Source: Candidatus Omnitrophota bacterium (GTDB taxonomy: Bacteria; Omnitrophota; Gorgyraeia; B26-G9). From it: a DNA stretch of 64,000 bases. The stretch covers positions 101,478 through 165,477 of the forward strand of contig JAZDHZ010000034.1 in assembly GCA_043805415.1 (NCBI GenBank), written 5' to 3'. The notes below the pieces were generated by a model. It was not told the DNA's origin. It made no database searches and saw nothing but the letters and a program-made list of their open reading frames with translations. Shown piece by piece: positions 11,185 to 47,258 of this stretch. The first letter of the stretch is position 1; the number at the start of each line of letters is the position of its first letter. Both the position numbers and the translations under genes were made by a program.

Positions 11185-11185
11185 T

Positions 11186-15142: not shown

Positions 15143-15160
15143 ACTTAGGTTTGTTTTTGT

Positions 15161-15189
15161 TTGCATTCCGCGCTAGAACTATTTATAAT
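15161..15189 (+). promoter_or_regulatory. Sigma70-type promoter
   Basis: TTGCAT at 15161-15166, 17-nt spacer, TATAAT at 15184-15189. The ATG at 15197 follows closely (short or absent leader). Confidence 0.5.
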
Positions 15190-15196
15190 AGTAAAC

Positions 15197-15937
15197 ATGT
15201 CAAATTCTTCTGAGAAAAAACTGATTCCTTTTCCGATTTTAATCATCTCGATTTCCGTCGGGGTGCTGGGCGTGCTCCTGGCTTTTGATCTGCCGCCGGT
15301 GAGCGCTTATGAGCGGCAGCTGCTAAAAGACTTGATCCTGATCCTGCTATTTATAATCTTTTCCTATTTTATTCTGCGCGCACCAATTAAAAAAATCAGA
15401 GAAAAAATTTTTACAATCGTAAATAATAAGCTTTTTGATTCAAAGAAAATCACGGCCTTAATTCCCGAGGATTTTGCTCAGGAGATAGTCAAAGAAAAAG
15501 GATTCGCGTTTTGCTATCCAAAGACTTGGTTTCTTACCGCTGCCTGCGAACCTGGTTTGTATAAAGAAGCCAGAGAACAGCTGCTTGAGCCGGGGATCAG
15601 CGGAACAAGAAATTTTAATATTTCTTATCATGATATCCGGCTTGCTCCGGACCTGGAGAAAATGTTTAAAGCGATTATTAATGCCGTGCTCGAGGTTTTA
15701 AAATCCTCGAAGCTTGAGTTTAAGCAGAGCTTTAAGAATGATCAATTTCTCGGCATGCGCTATAAAGTAGTTTATCGAAATGCGCAAGGATTAGACTTGG
15801 CTTGCTACCAAGTGGTGCTTACAAACCAGCATAAGCGGAATATGCTGATCTTTACCTTTACTTCCCAGACAAATGATTTTGATAAATCAAAGCCTTTATT
15901 TGATAAAATCGCCGGTCTGGCAAAAATCTTCGATTAA
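15197..15937 (+). CDS. Hypothetical membrane protein
   Basis: ORF with two predicted TM helices near the N-terminus (ILIISISVGVLGVLLAF; LILILLFIIFSYFIL). No recognisable motifs. Confidence 0.4.
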   Translation: MSNSSEKKLIPFPILIISISVGVLGVLLAFDLPPVSAYERQLLKDLILILLFIIFSYFILRAPIKKIREKIFTIVNNKLFDSKKITALIPEDFAQEIVKEKGFAFCYPKTWFLTAACEPGLYKEAREQLLEPGISGTRNFNISYHDIRLAPDLEKMFKAIINAVLEVLKSSKLEFKQSFKNDQFLGMRYKVVYRNAQGLDLACYQVVLTNQHKRNMLIFTFTSQTNDFDKSKPLFDKIAGLAKIFD

Positions 15938-16038
15938 ATTTAAATCCGCGGGAACTTTTTGTTTAAAAATTTGTCTAACTATATACAGAGGAAATGAGCC
16001 GGATTAAGGTCAGAGTTTAAGAATTAAAGGAGGCAAAG

Positions 16039-17487
16039 ATGAAGAAAATTCTGGTTTTATTAAGCTTTTGTTTATTGGTTAATCTGAACGCGAATGCGAT
16101 TGCTTTGGCTGGCGAAGAGACAAGCACGGCTTTAGATCAAAAACAAGTGGCGATTACGATTTACAATAATAACCTGGGCTTAGTTAAAGATGTGCGGGAG
16201 ATTAAATTAAGTTCCGGCGTGCATGATCTGAAATTCATGGATGTGGCCAGTCAAATCAGGCCGGTGACAGTGAATATAAAATCATTATCCGCGCCGGATA
16301 AACTCTCTGTGCTTGAGCAGAATTATGAATATGATCTATTGAACGCGCAAAAACTTTTGGATAAATATGTGGGCAAACAGGTAAAACTATTGGATAAAAA
16401 TTATTATACCGGTAAAGAAGAAATAGTAACCGCCGAGCTTTTAAGTAATAATGGTTCGCCAATATACAAAATTAATAATGAGATCCAGGTTAATCCTTTG
16501 GGCCGGATAATTCTCCCGGAGATTCCGGATAACTTAATTGCCAAGCCCACGCTGATCTGGATGTTGAAAAACAGCAATCCCAAGCAGCAGGATATTGAAG
16601 CCTCGTATTTGACTAATGGGATTAACTGGAAGGCTGACTATATCGCGGTGATTAATCAGGATAATACAATCGCGGATTTAAGCGGCTGGGTTACGATTGA
16701 GAATAATAGCGGAGCAACATATAAAAATGCTCAGATAAAACTGGTTGCCGGAGATGTAAACCGGGTGCAGGAAGATCGGGGTTATGCTGGCCGGGCAAAG
16801 GCAAGCAGGATGATGGAACAAGACGCGGTGAAAAGCTTTGCCGAAGAAGCGTTTTTCGAATATCATTTATATACATTGCAAAGACAATCGACAATTAAAG
16901 ATAATCAAACCAAGCAGCTCGAATTATTAAAAGCAATGGATATTCCGATCAATGAAAAATTGATTTATTATGGAGCGGATTATTATTTCCGCAACCAGTA
17001 TACCGGACAGGCGCAGTCAAAGGAAAAAATCGGGGTGTTTTTGGAAATTGAAAATAAGCAGAAAAATAATTTAGGCATGCCGCTTCCGGCCGGAGTTATC
17101 CGCGCTTATAAAAAAGATAAAGAAGGCAGTCTGCAATTTATCGGAGAAGATAAAATCGATCATACTCCTAAAGATGAGAAAATCACAATTAAAATGGGCG
17201 ATGCTTTTGATGTAGTTGGAGAAAGAAAACAGCTGGAGTATCGGATTCTTTCAAAAAACGCCGCGCAGCGTTTTGATACAGAGCAGCAATGGCAGATCAA
17301 GCTGCGCAATCACAAGGAAAAACCAGTGGAAGTGGAAGTTGTTGAGCCGATTCCCGGAGACTGGCAAATAGTTAATGCTTCGGAAAAATATATTAAAACC
17401 GAAGCCAATACCATTAAATTTGTGGTAAAATTAAATAAAGATGAAGAAAAAACAATTGATTATCAAGTAAAAATCAGATACTGGTAA
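16039..17487 (+). CDS. Secreted DUF4139/DUF4140-family protein (TIGR02231-like)
   Basis: Signal peptide. N-terminal VAITIYNNNLGLVKDVREIKLSSGVHDLKF resembles the DUF4140 start (VTVY..GA.V.R). AAGGAGG RBS. Confidence 0.45.
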   Translation: MKKILVLLSFCLLVNLNANAIALAGEETSTALDQKQVAITIYNNNLGLVKDVREIKLSSGVHDLKFMDVASQIRPVTVNIKSLSAPDKLSVLEQNYEYDLLNAQKLLDKYVGKQVKLLDKNYYTGKEEIVTAELLSNNGSPIYKINNEIQVNPLGRIILPEIPDNLIAKPTLIWMLKNSNPKQQDIEASYLTNGINWKADYIAVINQDNTIADLSGWVTIENNSGATYKNAQIKLVAGDVNRVQEDRGYAGRAKASRMMEQDAVKSFAEEAFFEYHLYTLQRQSTIKDNQTKQLELLKAMDIPINEKLIYYGADYYFRNQYTGQAQSKEKIGVFLEIENKQKNNLGMPLPAGVIRAYKKDKEGSLQFIGEDKIDHTPKDEKITIKMGDAFDVVGERKQLEYRILSKNAAQRFDTEQQWQIKLRNHKEKPVEVEVVEPIPGDWQIVNASEKYIKTEANTIKFVVKLNKDEEKTIDYQVKIRYW

Positions 17488-17497
17488 GAAAACGTAG

Positions 17498-17517
17498 GGC
17501 CACGGCGTGACGTGGCC
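17498..17517 (+). terminator. GC-rich 7-bp hairpin GGCCACG-GCGTGA-CGTGGCC just after the DUF4139 gene stop; no U-tract, so possibly a protein-binding palindrome rather than an intrinsic terminator
   Basis: Perfect inverted repeat visible in the sequence; unusually GC-rich for this AT-rich window. Confidence 0.3.
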
Positions 17518-17590
17518 GTATCATTAACCATAATTATTATATCCGTACCCACCATATATTGTGTTTAAAAAGTTTTTTTTAGCAAATATG

Positions 17591-17619
17591 TTGCATATAT
17601 TGCGTTAATCTGATATAAT
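17591..17619 (+). promoter_or_regulatory. Sigma70-type promoter for smc
   Basis: TTGCAT at 17591-17596, 17-nt spacer, extended -10 TGATATAAT at 17611-17619. Confidence 0.55.
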
Positions 17620-17668
17620 TTTTCCATGCAAGGGATTGCCCCTGCTTAAGATAATATAGGGATATAAA

Positions 17669-20600
17669 ATGTATTTTAAAAAGCTCGAACTCTTTGGATT
17701 TAAATCTTTCGTTGATAAAACAACTCTTATTTTTGAACCAGGCGTAACCGCGATTGTTGGCCCCAATGGTACAGGAAAAAGTAATATTTCTGACGCGATT
17801 AAATGGGTATTGGGAGAACAAAGTGCCAAGTCTATGCGTGGGGCAAAGATGGAAGATGTTATTTTTAATGGCACAGAAACCCGCCCTCCGGTAAATATGT
17901 CAGAAGTTTCGCTGACGCTTTCTAATGAAGAAAGAGTTTTGGCGATTGATTATGATGAAGTAACTGTAACCAGAAGGCTTTATCGCTCAGGAGAAAGTGA
18001 GTATCTTCTTAATAAAACCCCGGTTAGGTTAAGAGATATAAATGAACTATTAATGGGCACTGGCATAGGCACGGAATCGTATTCTTTGCTCGAGCAGGGC
18101 CGGATTGACGCGATTATTAGTTCCAAGCCGGAAGAACGCAGAGTGGTGTTTGAAGAAGCCAGCGGCATTACCAGATATAAGAAACAAAAAAATGAGGCAA
18201 TGCGCAAGCTGCAGGCAACAGAAGAAAACCTTTTACGGGTTAATGATATAATTGTAGAGGTTAATCGTCAGTTAAATTCCATAGCGCGTCAGGTAAGTAA
18301 AGCGCGCCGCTTTCAGGAAAATTTTGATGAACTTAAAACATTAGATACGCAGTATACATACCTTCAATATAAACAGCTTAAGGAAAAAAATGATTTACTT
18401 GCCAGTGAAGAGACTGCTTTTCATGCTGAGCAGGCGGGATTAGAAAAAGAGCTTGCTGTTTTTTCTGAAGAGTTTGACGCCTTAAAAGTAACCCTTTCTG
18501 AAGTGGAACATAATTACAGTCACTTGAACAATCAATTTGTCAGGACTACTTCGCAGATTGAGCAGAATGTTCACGCTGTGTCCATTAATAATGAACGCAT
18601 CCAGGAATTCAGCCAAAGAGTGCGGGATTATAACCGCGATCTGGAAAACTCCCAAAAGAAAATCAAAGAACTGCAGGAGCAGATAAACCAACTGCAAATC
18701 CGGATTTCCGCTTTTTCCGACGAGAAAAGCGCGAAAGAACTTAATTTAAATTTACGCCAGACAACAATCGCGGAAATTGAAAACCAAATAAAACTCGCGC
18801 AAAAATCCGGAGAAGAAAACCGGATCGTGGCGGTAAAATTACTCAGTGAACACGCGCAGATTAAAAATGAACTGGCCAAGCTTTCGGCGAATATCAGCAA
18901 TGCTAACGCGCGCTTATTGCGGCTTAATCAGGAAAAAGCGAAAACTAATCAGGAACGCGAGAAGATTGACGCGGAATTAAAAAGCAAAATAGCGGAAGTT
19001 GAAAATTTAAGAGGTAAGGTTAATAAAGAAGAAGGCGACGCTCAGAATCTTAAAAATAATTATGAAGAGCTTAATACTCAGATAAAAGAGCTGGAAGTAA
19101 ATATCCAAGACAGCAAGCAAGCTTTAGTCGGCTGTAAATCCCAGCTGGAAATGCTGGAAAGATTGAGCAAGGAATACGAATGGTTTTCCAGCTCAGTGAA
19201 ATCATTTATGCTCCAAAAAGAAAACTATCCCGAAGCTTTTGCCGGAGTCCATGATGTACTGGTAAATCTTATGGAGGTAAAGCCGGGATATGAAGTTTGC
19301 GTGGAAACCGCGCTAGCCGAATACTTGCAGGCCGTTGTTGTTGATAGCCGACAAGTGGCTTTAAGGCTGAGAGAATTTCTTAATCAGCATAATATCGGCA
19401 GAATTCGGTTTATTACTCTGGATTCAATTCCGCAAATAGCTAATCAGCAGTCTCAGATTGAAAATACAAAGAATTTTTTAGAAGTAATTACCTGCGATGA
19501 TAAATACGCGAAAGTTTTAGCGTTTCTGGTTAAGAACACTTTTATTTTACAAGAAAATATTTTTGACAATCCGTCAAATCCTTTGACTAATATCAAAGAT
19601 ACGCTGAGTGCTGAGCCAGATGCTTCTGGCTTGCTTGAAGCTGAGCTTTTGTTTTCTTTTAAAACAAACGCGGCCAATAGCGTTAAAATAGTCGGCGATT
19701 TTAATCGATGGAATGCTTCTTTTGACAGTGATCTGGAACGCAAAGACACGGAGCTTTGGCAAAAGGTTCTAAAGCTCGCGCCAGGACGCTATACTTATAA
19801 GCTGGTGGTTGATGGCCAATGGATCATTGACCCGAACAATCCGCTTAAAGAAATAGATGTAAACGGACATGAAAACTCAGTTATCGAAGTGCTGGCAAAA
19901 TCCCAGGATGCTTTGGTTGCTGAGGCTGATAAGCCGGCGGCATTTGATTTTAATTTTCTGGAAACGCTGGTGAGTATGAGCGGCGAGCTGCATTCAACCG
20001 CGGGATTAATCAGCCGGCCGGTTGCTGACCAGACAACAGGCCTGTTTTATCAAAAAGCAAAAATAAGGCAGCTTAAGCAGGAAAGTGTCGGCCTGGAACA
20101 AGCCGTAGTTAAATATAAACAAGAAATCGACACTAAAATCCAGCAGCTTAAGTTTGTGGAAACAGAATTTACTCAATTAAATGATGCTTTGCACGAAGAA
20201 AAGATTAGTCTGGCGAATCGGGACTCGGAAAAATCCAGTATTGAAATAAACCGGAAAAAACTTGTGGATGAGCTTTTAGTCATTGATCTGGAAATTGATG
20301 AAACAACTCTTGATGTTCAGGAGTTTGAAGAAAAAGAAGCGGCTAAGAGAGCTAGGCTGAGCATTGTGGATCAGGAAATAGTCGGCAATGAACAGACAAT
20401 GGCAAGTAATCATCAATTGATCGGGATAAAAAACAAGGAGCGGGAAGAGCTTTTAGTTATTATCGCGGAAATGAAAACAGAATTTTCTTTGCTCAATGAA
20501 CAGGAAGAATCTTTAAATCAGAGTTTTTCAATGCTGTATAATACGCTCAAAGAATTAACCCTGAACTCGGAAGAATTTGTCCGGTATAAGGATGAGAGTA

Positions 20601-21625
20601 TAAAGCGGATCGAGGCGCTGACGATTCAGGTAAGTGAACTGAATAAATCCACGCTTGTCCTTGAGCAGGAAAAAGAAGAAATCGGCATGTCTTTAGAAGA
20701 ATTTAAAGAAAAACGCGGTCAATTATTAAGTAAATTTGAAGATATCCAGAATAAAATAAAAGAAAAAGAAAACCGATTAAATTATACCAAGAATCGGATT
20801 CGCGATATTGATGTTAAAAAAGTCGAGATGAATTTTAAAACCGAGTCATTGGTAAATTCAGCGAGGCAGGCTTATAAAATCGAACTGGAAACCCTGGAAC
20901 TTGAATTGCCGGAAGATATAGACTGGCAGGCGCGGAAAGAACAGATCGATGGTTTAAAAAATAAGATTGACCGGATTGGGGCAGTTAATCTGGCGGCAGT
21001 AGAAGAAGAGGAAGAATTAAGACAGCGCGCTGACTTTCTTAATAGTCAAAGCGAGGATTTGTTCGCGGCTAAGCAGACATTAATGCAGGCAATCCAAAAA
21101 ATCAACCGCACAACTAAAGCGCTTTTTCTCGAGACTTTTGAGAAATCAAAAATCGCTTTTAAAGAGTATTTCAAGCTTTTATTCAGCGGCGGCGACGCGC
21201 AGCTTCTGCTTACCGAGGGAAAAGATGTTTTAGAATGCGGGGTGGAAATCGTGGTGCGGCCTCCAGGCAAAAGACTGCAAAGCATAACCCTGCTTTCCGG
21301 AGGCGAGAAAACGCTTACGGCAATTGCCTTATTGTTCGCGATTTTTAAGATTAAGCCAACACCGTTTTGCGTATTAGATGAAATGGATGCCCCCTTAGAC
21401 GAATCGAATATTGATCGGTTCACCCGGGTTTTACAGGAATTTTTGAAAAGCTCACAATTCATAATTATTACCCATAATAAAAAGACTATTTCCATGGCGG
21501 ATGTTATGTATGGGGTAACAATGGAGCAGCCGGGTATTTCTCGGCTGGTGAGTGTGAAATTCAGCGAATTTAAAGACTCGGATAAATTAAAACAAGAGCT
21601 TATTCCTGAAGAAGCTATAATCTAG
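17669..21625 (+). CDS. smc: Chromosome partition protein SMC carrying an inserted AMPK-beta/CBM48-type carbohydrate-binding module after the hinge
   Basis: N-terminal head MYFKKLELFGFKSFVDKTTLIFEPGVTAIVGPNGTGKSNISDAIKWVLGEQS (Walker A). Long coiled coils. Hinge near VHDVLVNLMEVKPGYEVCVETALAEYLQAVVVDS. C-terminal signature LLSGGEKTLTAIALLFAIFKIKPTPFCVLDEMDAPLD (ABC signature plus Walker B). At 1318 aa it is about 120 aa longer than typical, owing to the insert at roughly 19650-19890. Confidence 0.9.
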   Translation: MYFKKLELFGFKSFVDKTTLIFEPGVTAIVGPNGTGKSNISDAIKWVLGEQSAKSMRGAKMEDVIFNGTETRPPVNMSEVSLTLSNEERVLAIDYDEVTVTRRLYRSGESEYLLNKTPVRLRDINELLMGTGIGTESYSLLEQGRIDAIISSKPEERRVVFEEASGITRYKKQKNEAMRKLQATEENLLRVNDIIVEVNRQLNSIARQVSKARRFQENFDELKTLDTQYTYLQYKQLKEKNDLLASEETAFHAEQAGLEKELAVFSEEFDALKVTLSEVEHNYSHLNNQFVRTTSQIEQNVHAVSINNERIQEFSQRVRDYNRDLENSQKKIKELQEQINQLQIRISAFSDEKSAKELNLNLRQTTIAEIENQIKLAQKSGEENRIVAVKLLSEHAQIKNELAKLSANISNANARLLRLNQEKAKTNQEREKIDAELKSKIAEVENLRGKVNKEEGDAQNLKNNYEELNTQIKELEVNIQDSKQALVGCKSQLEMLERLSKEYEWFSSSVKSFMLQKENYPEAFAGVHDVLVNLMEVKPGYEVCVETALAEYLQAVVVDSRQVALRLREFLNQHNIGRIRFITLDSIPQIANQQSQIENTKNFLEVITCDDKYAKVLAFLVKNTFILQENIFDNPSNPLTNIKDTLSAEPDASGLLEAELLFSFKTNAANSVKIVGDFNRWNASFDSDLERKDTELWQKVLKLAPGRYTYKLVVDGQWIIDPNNPLKEIDVNGHENSVIEVLAKSQDALVAEADKPAAFDFNFLETLVSMSGELHSTAGLISRPVADQTTGLFYQKAKIRQLKQESVGLEQAVVKYKQEIDTKIQQLKFVETEFTQLNDALHEEKISLANRDSEKSSIEINRKKLVDELLVIDLEIDETTLDVQEFEEKEAAKRARLSIVDQEIVGNEQTMASNHQLIGIKNKEREELLVIIAEMKTEFSLLNEQEESLNQSFSMLYNTLKELTLNSEEFVRYKDESIKRIEALTIQVSELNKSTLVLEQEKEEIGMSLEEFKEKRGQLLSKFEDIQNKIKEKENRLNYTKNRIRDIDVKKVEMNFKTESLVNSARQAYKIELETLELELPEDIDWQARKEQIDGLKNKIDRIGAVNLAAVEEEEELRQRADFLNSQSEDLFAAKQTLMQAIQKINRTTKALFLETFEKSKIAFKEYFKLLFSGGDAQLLLTEGKDVLECGVEIVVRPPGKRLQSITLLSGGEKTLTAIALLFAIFKIKPTPFCVLDEMDAPLDESNIDRFTRVLQEFLKSSQFIIITHNKKTISMADVMYGVTMEQPGISRLVSVKFSEFKDSDKLKQELIPEEAII

Positions 21626-25853: not shown

Positions 25854-25939
25854 GCGGGGATGGTGGAATGGCAGACACGCTAGCTTGAGGGGCTAGTGGG
25901 AGCAATCTCGTGAGGGTTCAAATCCCTCTCTCCGCACCA
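25854..25939 (+). tRNA. tRNA-Leu (anticodon GAG), type II with long variable arm, CCA encoded
   Basis: Acceptor GCGGGGA/TCTCCGC. Anticodon stem CTAGC/GCTAG with loop TTGAGGG (anticodon GAG). Long variable arm. T-arm GGTTCAAATCC. 3' ACCA. Confidence 0.85.
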
Positions 25940-25940
25940 A

Positions 25941-25966
25941 AAAACTCCTGAAATGGAGTTTTTTTG
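25941..25966 (+). terminator. Intrinsic terminator after tRNA-Leu
   Basis: AACTCC-TGAAAT-GGAGTT hairpin followed by TTTTTTT. Confidence 0.6.
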
Positions 25967-26013: not shown

Positions 26014-26042
26014 TTTGCCAGCCTTGTAATTTAAAAAAACCT
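26014..26042 (+). promoter_or_regulatory. Sigma70-type promoter driving structured leader A and the 26245 gene
   Basis: TTGTAA at 26014-26019, 17-nt spacer, TGgTATACT at 26034-26042. Confidence 0.5.
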
Positions 26043-26109
26043 ATGGTATACTTGCACTCCGTTGTAGCTGAATCTCAATATGTAACTATTAGTTAAAATG
26101 AAATATTAA

Positions 26110-26193
26110 GGGAATGCGAAGTTGAAACGTTCTTATTTATTAAGGCGTTTACGAAGACCCCTACTTCCCCCGTTCTTCGCATTCCTTTTTTTT
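26110..26193 (+). ncRNA. Structured leader RNA element, copy A (outer stem GGGAAUGCGAAG/CUUCGCAUUCC, conserved CCCCUACUUCCCC core, U8 tail); candidate cis-regulatory attenuator or riboswitch-like element
   Basis: Outer inverted repeat plus U-tract. Paralogous to 27177-27258 with compensatory changes in the stem. Lies between a promoter and the start codon of a secreted-protein gene. Confidence 0.4.
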
Positions 26194-26244
26194 ATTTGTT
26201 TGAGATCTAACACATTTAAACCAAAGTATTTATCCAGATAAGCT

Positions 26245-27012
26245 ATGAAAAATCCGCTGCATAACAAAATAATCTGTATGGTTTGCTTATTTATTGCAAT
26301 CAGCAATACTGCTTTACCGGTTTTTGCTTTGAATAATCCGGAATCAAGCCGAAAATATTGCCTTTCCCCGTTTTTACGTATAATCAATTCTGATTTTCAA
26401 TCCAGATTTGAGAGTCTAAACTCTGACTTATTAGACAATAATTTAAACATGCCAGGGGATCTGAAAAGCCGCGCGCTGGTAGTTGGCAGGACAAGCATAA
26501 TTTTTAATAACAAAGAAATGAGCTTTTTTGAATTAACAAAAAGCCTAAACCTTTTACTTGCCAATGATCGATTTACTTACTTTGCCAGAATTGAAAAAGA
26601 TATGGTTAAATATGCGGCATTAAGCACTGTAGAGCAGCTTTTACTTGCTTTAAAGCAGTCAGAATTATCAGAATATGCTGAGCAAATTGATATTATTCTG
26701 GCAATTTTGCATCTTTCCGCTGAAGACGCGGCAATTATCCTTAGCGGCATTGAACCTTTGCAGCAAAAATCAATTACTAATCTTACTGATAAGGCCTGGA
26801 CGAATAAATTCAGAATGAAACGATTCAGCTTAACCATGGGCTATGAGCTTGATATTGCTAAAGCTTGGTATGTTAAAACATTGGAAACAGAGGCTGAGGA
26901 AAGACAGTGGTGGCATGCTATGTGCCGCAATTCAATGCCTATGAATATGTTTAAGGGTTTGAATGCTGATTTGCAGAAAAAAAATCATGGCTTAATTGAT
27001 GCTTCAATTTAA
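26245..27012 (+). CDS. Hypothetical secreted protein (LSP-motif family)
   Basis: Signal peptide MKNPLHNKIICMVCLFIAISNTALPVFA then CLSPFLRI motif. No other recognisable motifs. Confidence 0.45.
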   Translation: MKNPLHNKIICMVCLFIAISNTALPVFALNNPESSRKYCLSPFLRIINSDFQSRFESLNSDLLDNNLNMPGDLKSRALVVGRTSIIFNNKEMSFFELTKSLNLLLANDRFTYFARIEKDMVKYAALSTVEQLLLALKQSELSEYAEQIDIILAILHLSAEDAAIILSGIEPLQQKSITNLTDKAWTNKFRMKRFSLTMGYELDIAKAWYVKTLETEAEERQWWHAMCRNSMPMNMFKGLNADLQKKNHGLIDASI

Positions 27013-27045
27013 TTCTATTCATGGCTTAAAAAAATCCTCTGAACA

Positions 27046-27074
27046 TTGAAATTCCTGGAATAATATGGTATAAT
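27046..27074 (+). promoter_or_regulatory. Near-consensus sigma70 promoter driving leader micro-ORF, structured leader B and the 27275 gene
   Basis: TTGAAA at 27046-27051, 17-nt spacer, TGgTATAAT at 27066-27074. Confidence 0.55.
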
Positions 27075-27176
27075 TCTAATGAAGTAAGGAAGTTATGGAA
27101 AAACGGGGGTTTTGGGGCTTTTTTATCGTCTAAAATTAAACAATTTTAAAAAGTAATTTAAAACTATATGTAAAAT

Positions 27177-27258
27177 AGGGATACGAAGACCAGAATCGCC
27201 TTATCCCCTAAGGTGATTATTGGCCCCTACTTCCCCTGTCTTCGTATCCCTATTTTTT
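27177..27258 (+). ncRNA. Structured leader RNA element, copy B (outer stem AGGGAUACGAAGAC/GUCUUCGUAUCCCU, same CCCCUACUUCCCC core, U-tail) ending 5 nt before the RBS of the 27275 gene
   Basis: See copy A. The terminator-like hairpin plus U-run is immediately followed by the AGGAAGG RBS and ATG. Confidence 0.4.
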
Positions 27259-27274
27259 AAAAAGGAAGGTTTAA

Positions 27275-28969
27275 ATGCATTGTATTTTTTTAAAAAACTT
27301 AGCAAGAGGATTGTTAGTTAATACTGGTTTGCTTGGTTTGCTGGTATTAGCGCAGCTGGTATTACCAGCAAGTTATTTGCACGCGCAGCAAAGCACTAGT
27401 TTTCTCAGCACCAAGATAGAAACATTGGAAGGCCCGAAGCTAAAGAAAACCGCCAAAGTAGAGCAAGTACTGAGGAACCTGGATATTCCCGCGGAATTAG
27501 GGTTTATTAAAGAAATCCACGTGCCCAAGACTCCGACAGAAAAAATGATCATCAATATCCAGGATCTGCATTGTAATTATAAAGCCCAGAAAAACATAGC
27601 CGGCATACTTGAATATTTAACCCAGACCTATGGCTTAAAACTAATCAGCGTAGAAGGCGGATCCGGGAAAATTGATACCAGTTTTTATCAGGATTTACCG
27701 GATGAAAAAATCAAAGAACAAGTCGCGGATTATTTTTTACGCGAAGCCAGAATAAACGGCACAGAATACTTTGCCATTACCACTGATCGGTTGATCCGCT
27801 TATATGGAGCGGAAGATGAAAAATACTATGATAAAAACCTGGACGCGTTTATGCGGGCCCTGCCGGCAAGGGAAATTATTCTGGAGACAATCGCTGTATT
27901 AGAAAATGATCTGAACATTCTAAAAAACAAAAGCTATAATAAAAAGCTCAGAGAACTTGATGATCATATCGTGGCCTATGACAATGGAGAAATGGGATTT
28001 GAAGACTATATCCAATACATATCCAGATTATCCGCGGAACAAAACGTAAAGCAGGAATTTGACCAGGTAAACCAGCTGGTAGAAAGCATTAAATTCAAAG
28101 ACTCGATAAGCATAGAAAAAGCCGAAGCCCAGAGAAAAGAACTGATTGATCATCTGACCAGTAATTTGTCTCGATACGAGATGGAAGAATTTTTAAAAGC
28201 AACCGTAGAATATAAAGCAAAAACCATGGACAATCTGACCTATCACAGCACCTTGCAGAAACTATACAATCAAATGGATAAAAAGAGCCTGACTTTAGAT
28301 CGGAAATGGCCGGATTTAAATGGATACATTGAATACTTAAAAAGACATGAGACCTTGGATAAATTCGCTTTATTTACCCAGATCGACAAACTAGTGGAAC
28401 GGATAAAAAACAGTTTATATACCAGCTATACGCAAAAGACATTAGATTATAATTTAAAGATCGTCAGACTAGCCAGAAGCTTATTTTCCACCAAGCTGCT
28501 GAATAAAGATCTAACTTTAGTCAGCAAATACCACACAGACTTTAATGCTAAAAAGATGAAGACATATATTCAAAAAGAAGCCAAGCGGTTAAAGCTTGAT
28601 TTAGCTATACCGGATGATGAGCGGTTAAAGCAAATGGAAGAGACTTTACCGGCAGTAGAAGATTTTTATCGCTATGCTTCGAAGCGCAATGATATCCTGG
28701 CCAATAATACTTTGGACGGCATGGCTAAAGAAAACGAAGACATCGGAATCCTGATCACCGGAGGATTTCATACTGATGGTATAACCGATTACTTAAAAGA
28801 CAAAAGAATAACTTATATTGTAATCGTGCCCAAGATCGAAGAGCTGGAAACAGATGATACCCGCTATATTAATGCTTTGCAGGGCAAGAAAACGCCGTTT
28901 GAGGAAATGATTGAAAAAGAAGATAAATCAGCAGTAACTCCAGAAACTGCTGATTCAGCAACCCCTTGA
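27275..28969 (+). CDS. Hypothetical secreted protein (564 aa)
   Basis: Signal peptide LLGLLVLAQLVLPASYLHAQQ. AGGAAGG RBS 6 nt upstream. No recognisable catalytic motifs. Confidence 0.5.
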   Translation: MHCIFLKNLARGLLVNTGLLGLLVLAQLVLPASYLHAQQSTSFLSTKIETLEGPKLKKTAKVEQVLRNLDIPAELGFIKEIHVPKTPTEKMIINIQDLHCNYKAQKNIAGILEYLTQTYGLKLISVEGGSGKIDTSFYQDLPDEKIKEQVADYFLREARINGTEYFAITTDRLIRLYGAEDEKYYDKNLDAFMRALPAREIILETIAVLENDLNILKNKSYNKKLRELDDHIVAYDNGEMGFEDYIQYISRLSAEQNVKQEFDQVNQLVESIKFKDSISIEKAEAQRKELIDHLTSNLSRYEMEEFLKATVEYKAKTMDNLTYHSTLQKLYNQMDKKSLTLDRKWPDLNGYIEYLKRHETLDKFALFTQIDKLVERIKNSLYTSYTQKTLDYNLKIVRLARSLFSTKLLNKDLTLVSKYHTDFNAKKMKTYIQKEAKRLKLDLAIPDDERLKQMEETLPAVEDFYRYASKRNDILANNTLDGMAKENEDIGILITGGFHTDGITDYLKDKRITYIVIVPKIEELETDDTRYINALQGKKTPFEEMIEKEDKSAVTPETADSATP

Positions 28970-29257: not shown

Positions 29258-32200
29258 ATGAATTATAAACAGAAATCAAAATTCAGGCTGATATTTAGAG
29301 TCATTGCCAGCGTGCTTTTACAGGCATTTTTATTTACAAATTTTGCCTGGTGCGGTGCTGATCAGTTTATTCAAGGCAATACTGTTTGCGCGCCGGCAAT
29401 TAGCAGTACAACTATTTCTCCCGCGATCCAAGTCACTGAAGCTTCAATTCAAACTCTTTTTGTTCAATCCGCCGCGTTCCAAATGGGCAAAAGAGCAGAG
29501 TTTAAAGGCCTTGATTCTTTAAAGCAGGCAGAAGTGGAAAATGCTTTAGGCGATAAATTTAGTTTAAGCCTGAATCTAAAAGGAAAGCTAAACACCGCGT
29601 CAGTTATTCAAAATATCGAAAAAAGAACAGATATCAAAGCGGATTATAAGAAGATCCTAAACGCGATGATCCTTGAATTCGGCAAACTGGATGTTAAGTT
29701 CTATTCATATGAGACATTAGTTGAGGACTTGTTCGGGTTTGCTTCTGCTGGCAATAAGATGATCGCGATTCATTCCTCGGTATTCAGTAATCCGATTGCT
29801 CAGACGCATGAAATCGGGGAATTCTTAGCGCAAGCAGGAATGCTGAATTTTTCGCTTGGCCAGGATGACCAGCTATTGATCAGCTTAAATGGCAGTTTAA
29901 TCGGCAGGATAAAATTATCGGAAGATGCTTTGGCAATCGCGAAGAAAGATCCGTCCAGTAACCATTATTTGCTGCGGGCTTTTCAACGGGAGGTTTTTCA
30001 GGATAAGGATCGGGCTTTAACCGCTGGGATTAAAAACAAGCAGGGGGATTTATCTTCCGCGATGAAAATTTTTCTTAAAACCATAAATGCTGAGACTGGA
30101 AACAAAGTTGAAGCAAGTATGTCTTTGTCTAAACTTAATGACCCGATGTTCGAGGCGCTGTTTAAAGATATTGAGTTTAATCGGTTTTCCGAAAACGATG
30201 CGGCAAAATTAAAGATAGCGATACTATTGCAGAATAACATTGCTATTGAGCCTATTGCTGAACCCTTGCTTCAAGAGTGCGGGATGCTGAATAAGGAATC
30301 CGCTGATCTTTATGAAACCATATTCCCGGCTGCGGGAACTCCTGGTTTTAGCCCAAAAAAATTATTCGCGAAAGAAAATGTTAATCCGGATAATCTGCAT
30401 CTTATCTTTGAATTAGCTAAGCGCTATAGTCCGATTAAAGCGTTTAGCGATAAGTTAGACAGAATCTACCGCGAGCTTGCCTTATACACATTGCCGGTAA
30501 GTCCGGGAGCAAGATATCATATATCTTTGCTTAAAGATCTAAACAGTATTTTATTGTCCGGAGGACGGATTAAAGAATCAAAGCACTCGCTTAGCGGTCA
30601 GGGTGTTTATTTCTTTGAAATGGGAAATTCCGGCTTAGTCAATGCGCAGACACGCTTAGCTGAGTTTTTCCCTTTTATCTCCAGCTCGCCGCATGATCTG
30701 GCAGATGCGGATTATGTGGTTAAGGCGTTCAGGCAAAAGATTGCCCGAGACGCGAAAGATAATGCCCGGATATTCCCGGTTGTAATCCAGGTTGCTGAGG
30801 ATATCCCGGCTGAAGCTGCGATGGGCTGGGCTTTTCGTGAGGATTATAAAAAGGCGGGAAAGCTTATCCGCGATGAACTTAATGCCCAAGAGTATGAATT
30901 TTTAATCAACCTGAATTATTTATATCTTAGCGAGAACCAAGCGGTTAAAAACCATTTGCTCGCGAAAAATATTATTAGAGAAGAAAACGGGATAATCAGG
31001 CTGGTTGATGCTTCGCGGGCGATTCAGGATGAAAACAAAAAGAATACGGGTTGGGCCAGAATGAGATTTGCTGACTTGCGTTATGAAGTGATCAATCTTT
31101 CCTACACAAAGCTGGATAGTGATATCCAGAAGCTTAGCGCCAAGATGGCTCAATTACTCCAGAATCTTCTCGCTGATAAAATGAGCGTATCTTCGGTTGT
31201 GGATACAGGCTCATCAAATCGCGGGCTTACTGTGGAAAATCCGGATTTTGATTTTCTGATTAAAATTAATTCCCCAGAGGATTTTACGGCAATTGTTAAG
31301 CTGCTGCTTGATGAAAAAATATTAGAAAATTTTCTCAAGGAGCATAAAGCTGCTTTTGAAGCGATCTATGGCGATAAGTCCGTGAGTATTGTCACCGAAC
31401 AGCCGCATGCCGTAGGCAAAGGCAATTTATATTTGTTTCCGTTTAAATTTGTCGCGGCTAACCGGATTGTCGGCGGGGTTGATTTTAATTTTTCCAAGCT
31501 TTCAGCGGGAAAAGCCGAGACTTTGAGCTATCACGAGACAGCGCGGCAGCAGCTGCAAGCCATACTGGATAAAGTTCCCGAAGCAGAACAAAAACAGCTT
31601 TCCCGCTATCTTGCCGGAGAAATTAAAACCCTTAAAAAATTAATTATAAATCAGGGTTTATATAAAGATAAGGATACAAAACGAAATAGATTTATCGGCG
31701 TGGCAGTAGAACAAATGATCTACAATCTCAGCGATTATCTGTCTATGCCAAGCAATATTTCCACTGCTGAAATTAAGAGCATATTTTCAATAAAAACCGC
31801 GCTTTATTTAATCAGCCGGATGGAAAGCGAAAGATTAAATGGTCTGTCATTTTCTCTGTATCAAAGAGCAAATGGAAGCGGGTTTTCTAATCAATCGGTA
31901 AAATACGATTTAAGGGATAATGAAAAATCAGTTATCCCTAAAGTTGGGACGGCTTTTGCCGGTTTTAAAGAGTTTTCAGAAGCGGAAAATGCCGGAGTGA
32001 AAAATAAAATTAAAGGATTAATAACTGATTTTATTAGCCGGCCGGGGAATAAGGTAAAAATTATTGAGTTTTTTGCCAGGTACAATAATGAAGTTGACGC
32101 GGCGATTGCTTTAGGTCAGGCGAAACCTTTTAGTAACTGGGAATTTTTTGAAAGATGGGAATTCACGCACCGGTTTTTTACTCTGCATAAAACAGAGATT

Positions 32201-32560
32201 GATATATTCGCGATAGATAAGACTGATATGTCTCAGGACGCGAAGCTGAAAATAGCGGAAATGATCAACGGATTAAAAGCCGGGATAACTGAGTCAATGG
32301 GTGTGAGTGAAGATAAAATTACCGGTCGGGAAATCACGCGGTGGTTTAAAACTCCTTCTTCGCGGAATAAGCAGCTGAGAGATTTTTATTTTCAATATGG
32401 GGCAATAACAGCAGAACCTATATCCATCCTGGGTTTTGCTGGGTTTTTAATGAATATTCCGGCATTGCGTTCGGCAGCTGATGCTGAGCGAAAAGCGGCG
32501 CCTTTAAGCGGTATTATAAACCGCAAGCCGCTCGAACAATTAGTCGGACAGTCAATATGA
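29258..32560 (+). CDS. Giant-family secreted protein (1100 aa) with a Pol-beta-type nucleotidyltransferase motif
   Basis: Leader MNYKQKSKFRLIFRVIASVLLQAFLFTNFAWC then TTISPAIQV. VVDTGSSNRGLTVENPDFDFLIK (about 31195-31260) matches hG[GS]-x10-DhDh of the minimal nucleotidyltransferase fold. AAGGGA RBS. Extended -10 TGTGGTATAAT at about 29064-29074. Confidence 0.6.
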   Translation: MNYKQKSKFRLIFRVIASVLLQAFLFTNFAWCGADQFIQGNTVCAPAISSTTISPAIQVTEASIQTLFVQSAAFQMGKRAEFKGLDSLKQAEVENALGDKFSLSLNLKGKLNTASVIQNIEKRTDIKADYKKILNAMILEFGKLDVKFYSYETLVEDLFGFASAGNKMIAIHSSVFSNPIAQTHEIGEFLAQAGMLNFSLGQDDQLLISLNGSLIGRIKLSEDALAIAKKDPSSNHYLLRAFQREVFQDKDRALTAGIKNKQGDLSSAMKIFLKTINAETGNKVEASMSLSKLNDPMFEALFKDIEFNRFSENDAAKLKIAILLQNNIAIEPIAEPLLQECGMLNKESADLYETIFPAAGTPGFSPKKLFAKENVNPDNLHLIFELAKRYSPIKAFSDKLDRIYRELALYTLPVSPGARYHISLLKDLNSILLSGGRIKESKHSLSGQGVYFFEMGNSGLVNAQTRLAEFFPFISSSPHDLADADYVVKAFRQKIARDAKDNARIFPVVIQVAEDIPAEAAMGWAFREDYKKAGKLIRDELNAQEYEFLINLNYLYLSENQAVKNHLLAKNIIREENGIIRLVDASRAIQDENKKNTGWARMRFADLRYEVINLSYTKLDSDIQKLSAKMAQLLQNLLADKMSVSSVVDTGSSNRGLTVENPDFDFLIKINSPEDFTAIVKLLLDEKILENFLKEHKAAFEAIYGDKSVSIVTEQPHAVGKGNLYLFPFKFVAANRIVGGVDFNFSKLSAGKAETLSYHETARQQLQAILDKVPEAEQKQLSRYLAGEIKTLKKLIINQGLYKDKDTKRNRFIGVAVEQMIYNLSDYLSMPSNISTAEIKSIFSIKTALYLISRMESERLNGLSFSLYQRANGSGFSNQSVKYDLRDNEKSVIPKVGTAFAGFKEFSEAENAGVKNKIKGLITDFISRPGNKVKIIEFFARYNNEVDAAIALGQAKPFSNWEFFERWEFTHRFFTLHKTEIDIFAIDKTDMSQDAKLKIAEMINGLKAGITESMGVSEDKITGREITRWFKTPSSRNKQLRDFYFQYGAITAEPISILGFAGFLMNIPALRSAADAERKAAPLSGIINRKPLEQLVGQSI

Positions 32561-32602
32561 ATATTCTCTAGGGCAATATGATTGGGTAAATGGAACAAGA
32601 TA

Positions 32603-35600
32603 ATGAATTATAAAAAATCAAAATTCAGGCTAATCTTTAGAATAATCTCATTAGTGCTTATCCAGGCATTTCTGGTGCTTGATTTTGCCTGGGCAATAGG
32701 CGGAGAATTTCCTATTGCTGATAAAATTTCTCAGGCTGCTACGCTTGCCCCGAAAATTAGTTTAAACACTCAGGAAGTCTGGGATGCTTATGTTTACAGT
32801 TCGCAAAATTCAGCTAAGATCAATGAACTTTCCTTACCTTCTGATCAGCCGATGGTTAATATTCCCAACCAATCTCCCCTGATCAGCCGGAGAGCGTTTT
32901 TCAAAACTGTTGGGCAAAAGGTTATTGGGGCTGCCGCGGTATTAACCGGAGCGGATCTGATATTGTCGGCGCCGGCAGAAGCCAGAGACTTAACCGTGGC
33001 TTTAAGCGATTTAGTGATCAATTTTGATAAAGGGGTTGCTGAAGCGGAGTTAAATAAATATATCGCGATTATTGAAGCTCAGGGTTTTAAAGAGTTATAC
33101 AGTTTAGAAAAAAAACAAGCGCAGACATTAATCAGAATTAAGGGGTTATTCCCGCTGAACGCGGAAAAATTATCTTACGCGCTTAATGCTCAGGCTAAAG
33201 CCAGAGGTCTGGCCAAAGGGTTTGTGGTCACAGCTAGTGACGCGAGCTGGAAGCAATCGCTTACTTATCGGAGCATGCAGGCTTTTGCGAATAAAGTAGC
33301 GCGTCTTTCAGCCAGCCTGGGATTCGGGGAGATCGATTCTCCGCAGCTTATTGGGCTTTATGAGGGGATTACCTGGGTTGAGAGTAAATTTAACCAATGG
33401 GAAACCGATGCCCAGGGCAGAATCAGACCAGTAAGGTCATATACCAATGCTATCGGAGTTACCCAGGTTATAGAATCTCAGGCTGTTAAGCAGATTGCCA
33501 GGTGGATAGTAACGCATAAGGGTGGAATATCCCGCTACGCGGAAATCATGAATGAGCTGGAAAGAATGATTTCCTCTGATAGTGAAAAGCTAAAGAAATC
33601 ACTCAAGGCGAATAAGAAATTCGGGGAAGAAGCCGAAGCCCTGAAACAGTTTAATGTCTATGCTGATTTCGCGGCTTATAAAAATGCCGGATCAGATATT
33701 GAAAAACAAAAACAGATAATTCAACGAATTCACAGAAAGATCAATAGTAATCCTAAGCTTATCGGCGTGAATTTATATTACGCGCTTGCTGTTTGGCAGT
33801 ATTTACAAAACAGGAATAATCTGCGAGCGGGAGTTACCGCTGAGCTTGCCGAATCAATGGGGCAAACCGGACAAGGGCTGACCAGAAAAAATCTTCCGCT
33901 TATTGAATCCGGTTCCGGGGCATATCAGCCAATGGATCTGGAAAAAGCCGGCTTGCAGTTTGAGAGTGATTATTTCCGCTTAAATCTGCTTTATCAAATG
34001 ATTAATCCCGAGAAGATTGCTGAGCTTTTGCAAGGCGCGGAAAGTAAAATATTAGTCAACACCATGGAATACTTATCGCGGCAGATGATGACAAAAATAG
34101 GCAACCAAAAGCTTGGCTATACTTATCTTACGCTGAACTGGGATCGATACCGCCGCCTGGAACTAAGGAAAAATAAAAATAATCAATATGAGTTTACCGA
34201 AAGGCCTTTAAGTTATTTTCAAAATAAGCCTAATGGTTTTTCCGTGAGTCTTGCCGCGGCAGCTTCATATAATTCCGGGACTGGCAGTGTGGACGATGCT
34301 TTGCTGAATTTTGGTAATGCCGTAGACGCGAATAATCTTCCCTTATGGATTAAAAATATGATCGGAGCCAATCCCCAAAATATTCGGGAGCCGATAAATT
34401 ATTTAAGGGTTTTTCTGGAAGATAAGTTTAATAATACCGGAGATCTCTCGGCCCAAGAGCAAAAAATTAAAAACGAGCTTATTGCCGAACGCTATAAACG
34501 CGTTTATAAAATCCAAGACCGATTGCTGGAAAAAAGAGCTTTAATCCACAAAAACAAGGTTCGGATATACGCGGCTTATCGGCGCGATGATGGTTTTGAT
34601 TATAAGCTGGCTGCCTGGGTTGCCCAGATCGCGGGCAGTGATTATGTGGATAGTTTTTTAAGAACCCATGGATTGGATAAAAAATGGCAAGAGGAAATTC
34701 TTAAATCTTCCCAGACACTTGATATTTTAGCACCGGCTTTGGCAGATGTGAATTCGCCGGGATATGCTGCCGCGGTAAATATCCGGCGGTATTTAGATTC
34801 AAAACAGCTGGCTTCTTTGGCTAAGCGGCAAGAAGCCTTTAAGTCTAAAGAACAGGCCCGGATCGCGAGAATTGAACTGGCTAAACAAATATCTAAGGAA
34901 AAACAATGGCAGAAAACCCTGGAGGGAATGACCAGCTGGGCAATGCGTTCCACGGTCGGGGTTGCTTCGCTTGGCGCGGCCGGCGCGATTGCCTGGATTA
35001 TAAACCGCAGGGTCAAGCTGGGTAAAAAACCAGTGCCTTCGCTTATCTATCGGCTGCCATTGCAGGGTTTTTGGATTCTGGGATTTGTTACTGTCCGGCT
35101 GTTCGCGATAGTTGGAAAAATTCTGTTTGGAACCGGTAAATATGTATTCAGCTTTTTTGCTAAAGCAAAACCGCGGATAAATAAACCAAGAAGCGCGCTT
35201 CTTGCCGATCAAAAGGTAGTTAGAAATAACCGGGTTAAACAAGCGGAAAACAGATATAAAAATAAGAACCGCTTTTTTTCAATAGCTAATTTAAAAAAAC
35301 TGATTCTGGGATCAATCTTACTGGCAATAATTGCCTGGCCTTTTGCTTCCCCGGCTTTTTCTCACGCGTCGCAAAAGCAGGCACAAGCTCCTCCGGCAAT
35401 TAGTTTAAGCCAAGAATTTAAAAAAGGCTTAATTGAAATCAGTAAGAAAAGTGACCATAAGCAGCTGAATGCTCAGGGCGAGCTTACCACAATAAAAGCT
35501 AATTTAAAAAAGAATCTTGAATTCAGCAATAGCAAAGCCCGGGAAAGGGTAGAGCAGATCAATCAGTTAGCGGAAAGAAATTGGCAAAAAGCGTATGTTA

Positions 35601-38600
35601 ATGGCGAATTAGATGAATACATAACAAAAAGAGGGCAGTCAGAAGATGCTCTTGCGATTGGCAAGGCGCTGTTTATTTTGCAAAGCGCTGCTCCGGAAAT
35701 TTATCAAGGTTTAAAAAAATATAATGCTTCTATATATCTGGCAGAGATCCCCTTCTATGGTTACGCGCGCGGTTCACGAGTATTTGGGCTTGGCGGCAAA
35801 CCAATGGTATTTGTAAATAAAGATTTTCTGAATAATCCTTTCAAAATCGCGCTTGTTTTATCTCACGAAGGTCATCACGCGATTCTTTTGCCCAAAGATT
35901 TACTGGAATCCGCGCTGCGGTATAATTTTTTTACTTTTATCAGGGATGTATTGTACAGTATTCCCCAGGGGGAAAAAGAAGCTTTCGAGATCCAGGCGGG
36001 AGTGGCCAGAGTTTTTTATATTGAGCCGATAAAAGGAAATATGTCTTATGACCCGCTTGATGTGGAAATTGCTTATGGTAGTCAGAAATGGCAAATAGTT
36101 GGGTTGGATATTTTAGGTACCGGCTTGTTCAATGTTATTCCTTTGATTGCCGGATGGTTAATCCTAAAGTTTTTTATGAATAGCAGCCGCGCTGGAAAAA
36201 GCCGAGATTATCAAAGATCAGGCAGCGGGGGATTGTCTAATCTGATAAACAGCAATTCAAGAAATAACAAGCGTCTGATTAGAAAAGGACGCGGTAAACG
36301 CAAAGGGAATTTCTTTTGGTCAATTATTTTAATCCCTTTGCTTGCTTTTCAATTCAGCAGTTTTCTTAGTCCCGCGATTACTCAAGCAAGTGATGTTTTT
36401 ATCCAGCCTCAGGAGAAAACAGAAATAACCGAGTATAAAAATGAACAGATTATAAATCCGATCCTTGGCACTGATCTTAAAGTAAACTCCCATTTTGGCC
36501 CACAGGAAGGAAAGCATAATAACGCGTTAGCTGATTGGTCCGAGGCGGTGATCAGAGGAGTTATTCAGCCCAACGCGGATATAATCCATGTTGATTTTCA
36601 TGCTGATGATTCCGGCGCGGTAATGGACGCGGATATGCTGGCCTTGAACGAAGTTAAGAATTTAAAAACTTCTCAGGAAAAAATCCAGGCAGTGCGGGAT
36701 ATCGCGGCTCATCTGAGAATAGATTCGTTTTATTACCCGGCTTATTTAACCGGACCAACCGGTCAATCAATATTGGGCACAACCTTTTGGGTTCGTCCGG
36801 AAGCAGAATGGCAGGGCGCGGCGAAAGAGCAATATATTGTCAGTGCTCCCTATGGAACGTTCCCCACGGATCATCCTGAGAAATATCCAAATGACAAGAG
36901 GATCAAAAGGTATGAGCTTAATGCCGATGATTTATCTTTAGTCGGGAAAAATGCTCAGTTAAAAAATGGGTTTATTCTGGACATTGATCTGGATTATTTT
37001 ACTTTGCATCGGGAAGATATGAATTGGGTTTATATGCGGGAGCTGCTTGAAAGAAAAGATGAAGCTTCTCAGAAATTAGCAAAGTCGATTCTTAAGACAG
37101 TCCACTATCAGCCGACCAGGCAGCAGCTGCAAAAAAATATTGATTTGTTTATTGACCAGCTCGCGAAGCTGCATGAACGCGGTATAGACCCGGGAATCAT
37201 TTCTGTTTTTGAATCACCGAATTTTACAGCTTATGCTGATGCTAAATGGGTAAATGACCAGTTAGTAAAGGGGTTCAAAGCTATTTACGGCAAAGGCTCT
37301 GCTTTAGCCGCGAAAGACCAGAAACCAAAGAGCGCGGCAAGCTCTGGCTGGAAAAAAATCTCAATCATGGGATTGGTGTCTGTAATCTCCGCGTCTTTTG
37401 CTAATTTGTTTTCCGTGGCTAATCTCTGGGCCATGGAAAATGGAGCGGATAAGGCTTTTGCTTCCTCTGATTTTAAATCAATAGTAACCTACCTTATCAC
37501 AATCGCCTTAATTGGCTTTTTAGTTAAATCGGGATTAAAAGCGCTTAGTTTAGCTAAACAAAAAAACGCGGAACAGCAGGCCGCGGTGATTGTTCCCAGC
37601 CAGGCGGCTTTGGATAAATTAAAAAAATTAGACACTGACATCAGCGCTTTATTTGCTCAAGGGAAAACTCAGGTTATTATCGCCTTTGACGGTCCCTCCG
37701 GCGCGGGCAAGACAACATTGGCTAATTATATTAAGGCAGTTGGTATTGCCGGAATACAGCCATCTGAAATACAGGTATTGTCGCGTGATGATTACGCGGT
37801 TGGCGGTGATTATAATGAGGCGAATATCGTGATTTTAGAAAAAATCTGGCATCGCGGAAAATTAGTTATTGTTGAGGGCAATGGAATCCAGTGGGCCAGT
37901 GCGGTATTAGCAGCAGATGCCGCGTATGCTAATCCGGATATATTTGTTAAAATAACCGCTGCTGAACAGCTGCGCAAACAAAGGCTATTAGAAAAAGGCT
38001 TGTCAGAGTCAGCGGCAAGTGAGCGGATTAGAACAGCATCTGGTCCTGATTCCGGTTTGTTTGATATTATTATTCAAGATCCTTATATCGAGGTTAACAG
38101 CTTGCGCAAGTCCGCGGAATATATAAAGGCTGAGAGCATATTGCGTTCATATCCTAATGACTCCGGCCTTGCTTTAATTCGTGAATTTGTCTTAGATCAA
38201 ATGCTTAGTTCTGATCGGCGCGGTATTATTGTTTATCATAATGAGCGCCATCTTAATGAGTTGTTTGAGTTTTTTGATGCAATATCAAAGCATTTACCGT
38301 TTAAAAATAAAGCCAGCGCCGAGCGTTTGATCCGCATGGCGATTTATCTGCATGATCTGGGCTACTTTTATTCAGAAGATGGATTGCTTATTCCTGGGCA
38401 TGAACAAAGAAGTAAAGATGAGGTTCTTGAATTTGTTAAGAAAAATCCCGGAATATTGTCCGCGGTTGAAGTCCAGTCGATTATGTATCTGATTGATAAA
38501 ACGCAGCTTAAAACCGGTGACGCGATTAAAAATGAAATCAGCGATGATAATAAAACCTATGACTTGCTGGATCGAATTAATAACGCGCAAGAATCAGGTT

Positions 38601-47251: not shown

Positions 47252-47258
47252 AAATAAA

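Follow-up and report, generated by a model that had tools for sequence, protein, structure and literature searches.

Two short elements, A and B, encoded in a 64,000-nucleotide stretch of Candidatus Omnitrophota bacterium DNA (assembly GCA_043805415.1, contig JAZDHZ010000034.1, positions 101,478 to 165,477; hereafter the window), are members of an undescribed, strongly conserved structured RNA family of ~75 nt that is specific to Omnitrophota. Immediately downstream of the pair is an operon that encodes exported and giant proteins. What appears to be new is an RNA family with an unusual twin arrangement, in which one copy would act in trans and the other in cis. Our data point to B as a 5′ untranslated region (UTR) element and A as a free-standing small RNA, and we tentatively propose that the two are functionally linked through a C-rich single strand that both carry and a G-rich block in the leader of B.

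A conserved family of structured RNAs

Elements A and B are each closed by an outer stem (P1), which across the family measures 12–14 bp, and enclose an inner hairpin (P2); 3′ of this hairpin both have an unpaired CCCCUACUUCCCC strand with an identical 13-mer core (Table 1). The exact core occurs twice in 64 kb, a length in which 0.79 matches with up to two mismatches would be expected by chance. A sequence-only reading of the window had pointed out the two elements with their shared stem and core, each behind a strong promoter. Both are borne out, with z scores of −3.9 (A) and −7.0 (B) for folding against shuffled sequence, and near-consensus extended −10 promoters precede each. The core is predicted to be mostly single-stranded, with a mean unpaired probability of 0.89 in B and 0.71 in A, the lower value arising from a CUUC in A that is able to pair with an upstream GAAG. 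P1 of B is lengthened by six more A:U pairs, reaching 27172/27256, and its U-run in the window, UAUUUUUU, is partly paired with the upstream A-run. The + strand is favoured because the G-U pairs of P1 become A-C mismatches on the other strand and because reverse-strand covariance-model scores are much lower.

Against Rfam 15 (4227 models, gathering thresholds) only transfer-messenger RNA (tmRNA) and transfer RNA (tRNA) pass in the window. At E values up to 10 there is no meaningful overlap with the elements between 25800 and 27400, the hits including rli60 (23 bits against 60) and mir-240 (23 against 67.5). The proposal of an undescribed structured RNA class is upheld by this negative Rfam result together with the homologues and covariation described below.

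Homologues were sought by scanning for the pattern in a single genome of each species, then by a stricter metagenome scan and then in protein-anchored loci. From ~20 Omnitrophota contigs at least 32 distinct copies were recovered, half of them (16) of type A and half (16) of type B; each locus has a single A-B pair, and each genome a single such locus. The genome pattern scan returned mostly chance matches in high-GC genomes, plus true Omnitrophota homologues of which some are labelled PVC or Planctomycetia. Among the matches listed (125 pattern matches, 119 genome loci), a complementary P1 arm is found only in Omnitrophota, 'PVC' or mislabelled 'Planctomycetia' contigs. The metagenome scan contributed 11 loci more. 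Three further loci were reached through neighbouring proteins, L134 and L135 via the 564-aa protein encoded after B and L153 via the peptidase of the same module; these were not selected on the core, yet have both elements with an identical core. The covariance model detected no further copy in the 64-kb window, in the paralogue loci L133 and L136 of the same genomes, or in distant Omnitrophota loci, namely L131 and L132 (distant homologues of the 560-aa protein) and L149–L151 (distant homologues of the peptidase). All 11 pattern matches in viral contigs are attributable to chance, and a viral occurrence was rejected. A dispersed repeat resembling a repetitive extragenic palindrome (REP) or miniature inverted-repeat transposable element (MITE) was likewise rejected, as the 64 kb contain just two copies, each genome has the elements at a single locus, and L133 and L136 lack them.

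The compensatory differences between the outer stems of A and B, from which selection on RNA structure had been argued, hold across the 32 distinct homologues. Aligning 26 copies with MAFFT gives 92% pairing in P1, with nine of its 14 pairs changed on both sides, values reached by none of 500 shuffles; in slid controls on the same alignment pairing drops to 41–57%. Aligned separately, the A copies have 98.5% of cells paired (covariation score attained in 0/500 shuffles) and the B copies 94%, with seven pairs changed on both sides (again 0/500), and P2 is supported in both as well. A model-guided alignment of the 32 distinct copies, which leans towards the covariance model's own structure, has 93.6% of cells paired, with two-sided changes in 16 of 26 pairs (0/500 shuffles). 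The core is identical in every one of the 32 copies, while neighbouring proteins are merely 46–65% identical. Across A and B together 26 columns are invariant, and much of P1 is unvarying.

Table 1. Features of the A-B module in the window (window positions; P1, outer stem; P2, inner hairpin; TSS, transcription start site; ORF, open reading frame).
Feature	Position	Strand	Description
tRNA-Leu(GAG)	25854..25939	+	own terminator hairpin 25939-25964; conserved upstream neighbour of module
A-unit promoter	26024..26052	+	TTGTAA-17-TGgTATACT, extended -10; inferred TSS near 26059
Element A	26110..26185	+	P1, P2, 3′-side single strand with core
A outer stem P1	26110-26121 / 26175-26185	+	GGGAAUGCGAAG pairs with CUUCGCAUUCC; 12-bp
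A inner hairpin P2	26125-26150	+	
A C-rich core	26158..26171	+	invariant CCCCUACUUCCCCC; 13-mer core 26158-26170
A U8 tract	26186..26193	+	
255-aa ORF	26245..27012	+	signal-peptide-like N-terminus; variable slot between A and B
B-unit promoter	27046..27074	+	TTGAAA-17-TGgTATAAT, extended -10, 11/12 matches; inferred TSS near 27081
G-block	27104-27118	+	CGGGGGUUUUGGGGC, complementary to core; U6 27119-27124 directly after
UUUUAAAAAG box	27144..27153	+	UUUUAAAAG; conserved columns, alignment of 13 B units
Element B	27172..27256	+	P1, P2, core
B outer stem P1	27177-27190 / 27238-27251	+	AGGGAUACGAAGAC pairs with GUCUUCGUAUCCCU
B inner hairpin P2	27194-27218	+	invariant loop UCCCC 27204-27208
B core	27224-27236	+	same 13-mer as A
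B U-run	27253-27258	+	
Shine-Dalgarno sequence	27264-27269	+	GGAAGG; AUG at 27275
564-aa gene	27275-28969	+	first gene of operon preceded by B

Element B in the leader of an exported-protein operon

On predicted transcript boundaries, B is a true 5′-UTR element of the 564-aa gene (with its orthologues, the 560-aa gene) and is contained within a ~180-nt 5′ UTR of the operon. The same B promoter is found at the same distance in relatives. In 13 of 16 loci B directly precedes the ribosome-binding site (RBS) of a conserved gene for an exported protein; an orthologue of the 560-aa gene follows B directly in the window and in L046, L047, L092, L107, L123, L129, L134, L135 and L153, and in most loci 10–20 nt separate B from the Shine-Dalgarno (SD) sequence of that gene.

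The U-tract of B is kept in nine of 15 orthologues. The copies of L122, L123, L127, L129, L134 and L135 have at most four U in the 8 nt after P1, and the A:U extension of P1 is often retained where the U-tract is absent. Because six of the 15 orthologues are without a U-tract, B is not generally a terminator, and the terminator-shaped expression platform that the sequence-only reading saw in it fails for B in general.

Relatives of the 564-aa protein (84 matches) are almost confined to Omnitrophota, and the family has the invariant residues Q96-D97, H99, E127-G128 and G496-G497-F498-H499. Its AlphaFold model is good (pLDDT 85), and a Foldseek comparison with the PDB gave nothing significant, the best match being the erythromycin esterase EreC (E 0.065), with 3b55 also among the best matches. 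The protein may have a hydrolase fold of the EreA/ChaN/TIKI kind with a large helical insert.

Element A as a candidate small RNA gene

Upstream of A, the box CTTG(T/C)AA ... TGnTATACT is kept in 14 loci. The A leader ranges from 5 to 190 nt with no conservation, and in L115 the −10 box is located 5 nt ahead of the element. Each of the 15 A copies examined has an unpaired U-run directly after P1, and P1 with the U8 tract looks like an intrinsic terminator that would form the 3′ end of an A RNA.

The slot between A and B (26194-27045 in the window) is variable. In the window it holds a lineage-specific 255-aa ORF whose product has no Pfam match and whose gene has no homologue in the A-B slot of any other locus compared. 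Elsewhere the slot holds unrelated genes of 258, 406, 663, 693, 695 and 852 aa, being filled also in L031, L107, L125, L127, L129, L134 and L153, and it is empty in at least six loci (L046, L047, L054, L073, L115 and L135), in which the B promoter comes directly after A. According to a promoter scan in L134 and L153, genes inserted after A carry their own extended −10 promoter. No good promoter was found in the window between A and the 255-aa ORF, which may depend on read-through of A, an arrangement that looks secondary. Together these observations suggest that the slot is a hot spot for cargo insertion. The N-termini of slot genes were read in the window and L031, and both are signal-peptide-like.

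Given that the 255-aa gene has no positional homologue, that the slot is empty in at least six loci and that inserted genes have promoters of their own, A is not a conserved gene leader. The earlier description of two paralogous leaders before secreted-protein genes is supported for B and not supported for A. Instead A looks like an autonomous small RNA gene: judging by its signals, it has a promoter and a terminator of its own, independent of the flanking genes, as would be expected of a trans-acting small RNA.

A reading of A and B as nothing more than ordinary intrinsic terminators or repeated palindromes would account for the shape of P1 and its U-run and for the U-rich end of every A copy. 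It is nevertheless contradicted already and we regard it as extremely improbable. Directly upstream of A is a promoter and no gene, and the tRNA beyond it already ends in a terminator hairpin; the elements are not terminators of upstream genes, one of the outcomes named by the sequence-only reading as fatal to its proposal, since a promoter precedes each of them. The 13-nt bulge is invariant while flanking proteins fall to 46–65% identity, the two copies of each genome locus have no counterpart elsewhere, and B is often without a U-tract.

A G-block complementary to the core

Some 90–107 nt of B leader separate the inferred TSS from the element, and this segment contains a bipartite G-block, an immediate U-run and then the UUUUAAAAG box. 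Across loci the G-block is laid out as a run of 5–11 G, a linker of 1–7 nt and GGG(C), matching both C-runs of the core. In the window the G-block:core duplex has a predicted energy of −24.5 kcal/mol (0/500 shuffles as good), and in a ranking of 2,664 background windows (both strands) the G-block comes first as a partner of the core, bar the elements' own antisense. In 12 of 14 B leaders the duplex lies between −20.8 and −26.6 kcal/mol, with at most 2/500 shuffles as good, and wherever the block is present (12/14 loci) it lies 53–64 nt upstream of B. It is missing in L115 and cut to GGG in L073, the two loci where B is not directly before the 560-aa gene. No G-block was found in A leaders.

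The G-block pairs with the bulge plus at most 2–3 nt of P1. When only nested structures are allowed, P1 and the G-block:core duplex are in competition in several species; the two could coexist as a pseudoknot. RNAalifold yields only P1 and P2 for the B leader, and a nested consensus structure of the whole leader was rejected. The U-run and the 5′ purine-rich stretch give only a weak hairpin.

Halfway from the G-block to B, in an AU-rich leader with otherwise little conservation, is the UUUUAAAAG box, for which no role was found. A 12-codon upstream open reading frame (uORF) at 27095-27133 on the + strand, MEKRGFWGFFIV, overlaps the G-block and has an SD-like AAGGAAG. It is not conserved, with ATA in L107 and ATG-TAG in L031, and a leader peptide was rejected. 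Two other candidates were discarded. For an anti-SD model, core-to-SD complementarity amounts to 4–6 nt and is inconsistent among loci; for T-box-like sensing of tRNA-Leu, there is no Rfam T-box match at E up to 10, and the GAG anticodon is matched in the sequence by no more than a CUU codon (3 nt).

A pairing model and its alternatives

We tentatively favour a model of RNA-RNA pairing through a C-rich seed, in which the G-block:core fold of the B leader tunes the operon and A competes in trans; we hold it to be a reasonable possibility while stopping short of calling it probable. The invariant single-stranded CCCCUACUUCCCC(C) between P2 and the 3′ strand of P1 would serve as the base-pairing seed. 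The B leader would fold back on its own core via the G-block and so set the expression level of the operon, acting through read-through of P1 and the U-tract where present and through access to the SD, 5–15 nt further downstream. Free A RNA, bearing the same seed, could reach the G-block before the B core is transcribed and thereby compete in trans. We infer the transcripts, pairing in vivo, the direction of regulation and the action of A on B. The only conserved complementary site found for the seed is the G-block of the B leader, and since this partner varies in length and spacing, simple base pairing fits better than a ligand pocket.

Several observations weigh against this model. The transcripts and their ends are predicted from sequence signals. 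The core is invariant, so that support for the core:G-block pairing comes from complementarity and not from covariation: core variants were sought in distant and paralogous loci (L131–L133, L136, L149–L151 and L152) and none was found, those loci being without the element. As the G-block pairs with the bulge and not with P1, it is not a classical antiterminator. The conserved U-run after the G-block and the UUUUAAAAG box fall outside the model's account, and the core does not match the downstream SD consistently from locus to locus. Finally, the near-invariant stem sequences (GGGAUACGAAG, CUUAUCCCCUAAG) hint at a protein or other macromolecular partner.

This last point leads to an alternative in which both elements are protein-binding RNAs. 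The C-rich strand with P1 and P2 would be the site of a conserved RNA-binding protein, which B recruits to the 5′ UTR to affect translation or stability, with A as a sponge or decoy and the G-block as an intramolecular competitor. Conservation of the stems beyond structural need, with the 26 columns invariant across A and B, is what such a site would be expected to leave; the P2 loop UAUCCCCUAA is unvarying in all B copies, and a free copy beside a cis copy is the usual layout of titration systems. However, no candidate protein was identified and the conserved neighbours have no RNA-binding domain, and the complementary conserved G-block is more directly explained by RNA-RNA pairing. We consider a protein-binding role unlikely, though still to be taken seriously.

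Alternatively, A and B may have two independent roles. A would be a trans-acting small RNA whose C-rich seed targets G-rich RBSs elsewhere in the manner of RsaE/RoxS, and B would be a stabilising or insulating hairpin that arose from a duplicate of A, its seed masked by the G-block. At ~40% GC unpaired C-runs are rare and specific, with 59 CCCC against 150 GGGG in 64 kb, and several genes have G-rich SDs, one example being the G9 run before 47470. The two copies of L115 are both stand-alone units that have strong U-tracts and lack a G-block. This separation of roles seems to us rather doubtful, as the analysis found no conserved target in trans, the window's remaining good sites are inside ORFs, and the sequence of B is as constrained as that of A, which is unexpected for a passive hairpin.

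The reading of the elements as a riboswitch or ligand-sensing attenuator, put forward from the sequence-only reading, has in its favour an aptamer-like feature that stands up in the homologues, namely covarying helices framing strictly conserved unpaired nucleotides. B adjoins the RBS within a 5′ UTR, and a long-range pseudoknot partner exists; the core with the G-block might form the pocket, and P1 with the U-tract, or P1 beside the SD, the expression platform. Yet A has no downstream gene in at least six genomes and no G-block, the length of the G-block (3–11 G) and its linker (1–7 nt) vary, unlike a ligand pocket, and six of 15 B copies are without the U-tract. The downstream genes have no metabolic function hinting at a ligand, nothing else points to one, and there is no Rfam riboswitch match. 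We judge this explanation improbable.

A bolder variant of pairing between A and the B leader would take the G-block and its U-run (27104-27124) as the 3′ half of a split intrinsic terminator whose C-rich 5′ half is supplied in trans by A. A would then shut off the giant-protein operon on the nascent transcript, and the B core would be a later cis decoy or reset. We think this very improbable; were it true, it would be a natural case of intrinsic termination completed by a small RNA.

Relation to known systems

The seed-pairing model invites comparison with several known systems, and the function of A and B would by analogy be most like that of C-rich-seed small RNAs (RsaE/RoxS) and of paralogous small-RNA pairs, without belonging to those families. 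The RsaE/RoxS-type small RNAs of Firmicutes (Rfam RF01820) resemble the predicted A RNA in being short stand-alone transcripts that end at an intrinsic terminator and in having unpaired C-runs suited to G-rich targets in a low-GC genome. However, A and B match them in neither sequence nor structure, and their seed is in a 3′-side bulge inside the terminator stem. The second copy here is in an mRNA leader, and the sole conserved complementary site is in that leader and not at an RBS. GlmY/GlmZ and the tandem PrrF1/PrrF2 are homologous small-RNA pairs with divided roles. Like them, A and B are side-by-side paralogous RNAs with the same fold and their own promoters, of which one plausibly competes with the other; unlike them, one paralogue is in a 5′ UTR, and the phylum is unrelated.

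SreA and SreB of Listeria are riboswitch-terminated RNAs that also act in trans. The B leader shares with riboswitch and attenuator leaders of this kind a conserved structure between promoter and RBS and, in the window, a terminator-like stem and a possible pseudoknot partner. It differs in that there is no ligand candidate, the B U-tract is not conserved, A is an orphan and the alternative pairing spares the terminator stem. Antisense-RNA-driven transcription attenuation is known from the pT181/pIP501 type, and oligonucleotide-induced termination in vitro was reportedly obtained by Yarnell and Roberts in 1999. In the split-terminator proposal a small RNA would likewise pair with a nascent leader and decide transcription, and the G-block with its U-run resembles the 3′ half of a terminator, but A is not antisense to the leader and its complementarity is limited to ~10–14 nt of G:C. 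To our knowledge, completion of a terminator in trans has no natural precedent.

The Omnitrophota are very small, uncultivated bacteria that probably live as predators or parasites, and their giant genes are under active study. In the literature searched, no report was found of regulatory RNAs in Omnitrophota or of this motif. The apparent design, a free small RNA and a 5′-UTR twin with a common invariant C-rich seed and a complementary G-block in the same leader, is unusual. The locus gives a concrete and testable starting point for studying how genes are regulated in Omnitrophota, and the elements are a candidate new Rfam family.

Genomic setting

All copies are located in one syntenic module that reads peptidase-MA/TPR, HemW-like radical-SAM, tRNA-Leu(GAG), promoter, A, optional gene, promoter, B, a 550–570-aa protein and very large proteins. 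The same tRNA is upstream of A in L047, L073, L125, L127, L135 and L153. In a related metagenome-assembled genome (L152, 9412-12970; peptidase 61% identical) polyprenyl synthase and CheX-like genes come after the peptidase and HemW genes, without the tRNA-Leu, A, B and 560-aa module, which suggests that in this lineage the module is missing or relocated. As L152 keeps the peptidase and HemW while lacking the tRNA, A and B, the module is present or absent as a unit.

Window genes are almost all on the + strand. Very long ORFs of 1642, 1340, 1318, 1100 and 2986 aa occupy 6256-21625 and 29258-41542 (+). The 1100-aa and 2986-aa proteins have a common N-terminal segment of ~70 aa with 42% identity, and orthologues of the 2986-aa protein come after B in L073 and L129. 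A complete tmRNA gene at 46820-47252 (+; Rfam RF00023, 176 bits) is ~60 nt longer than the 374-position model, the extra length corresponding to an insertion of ~75 nt after the tag region.

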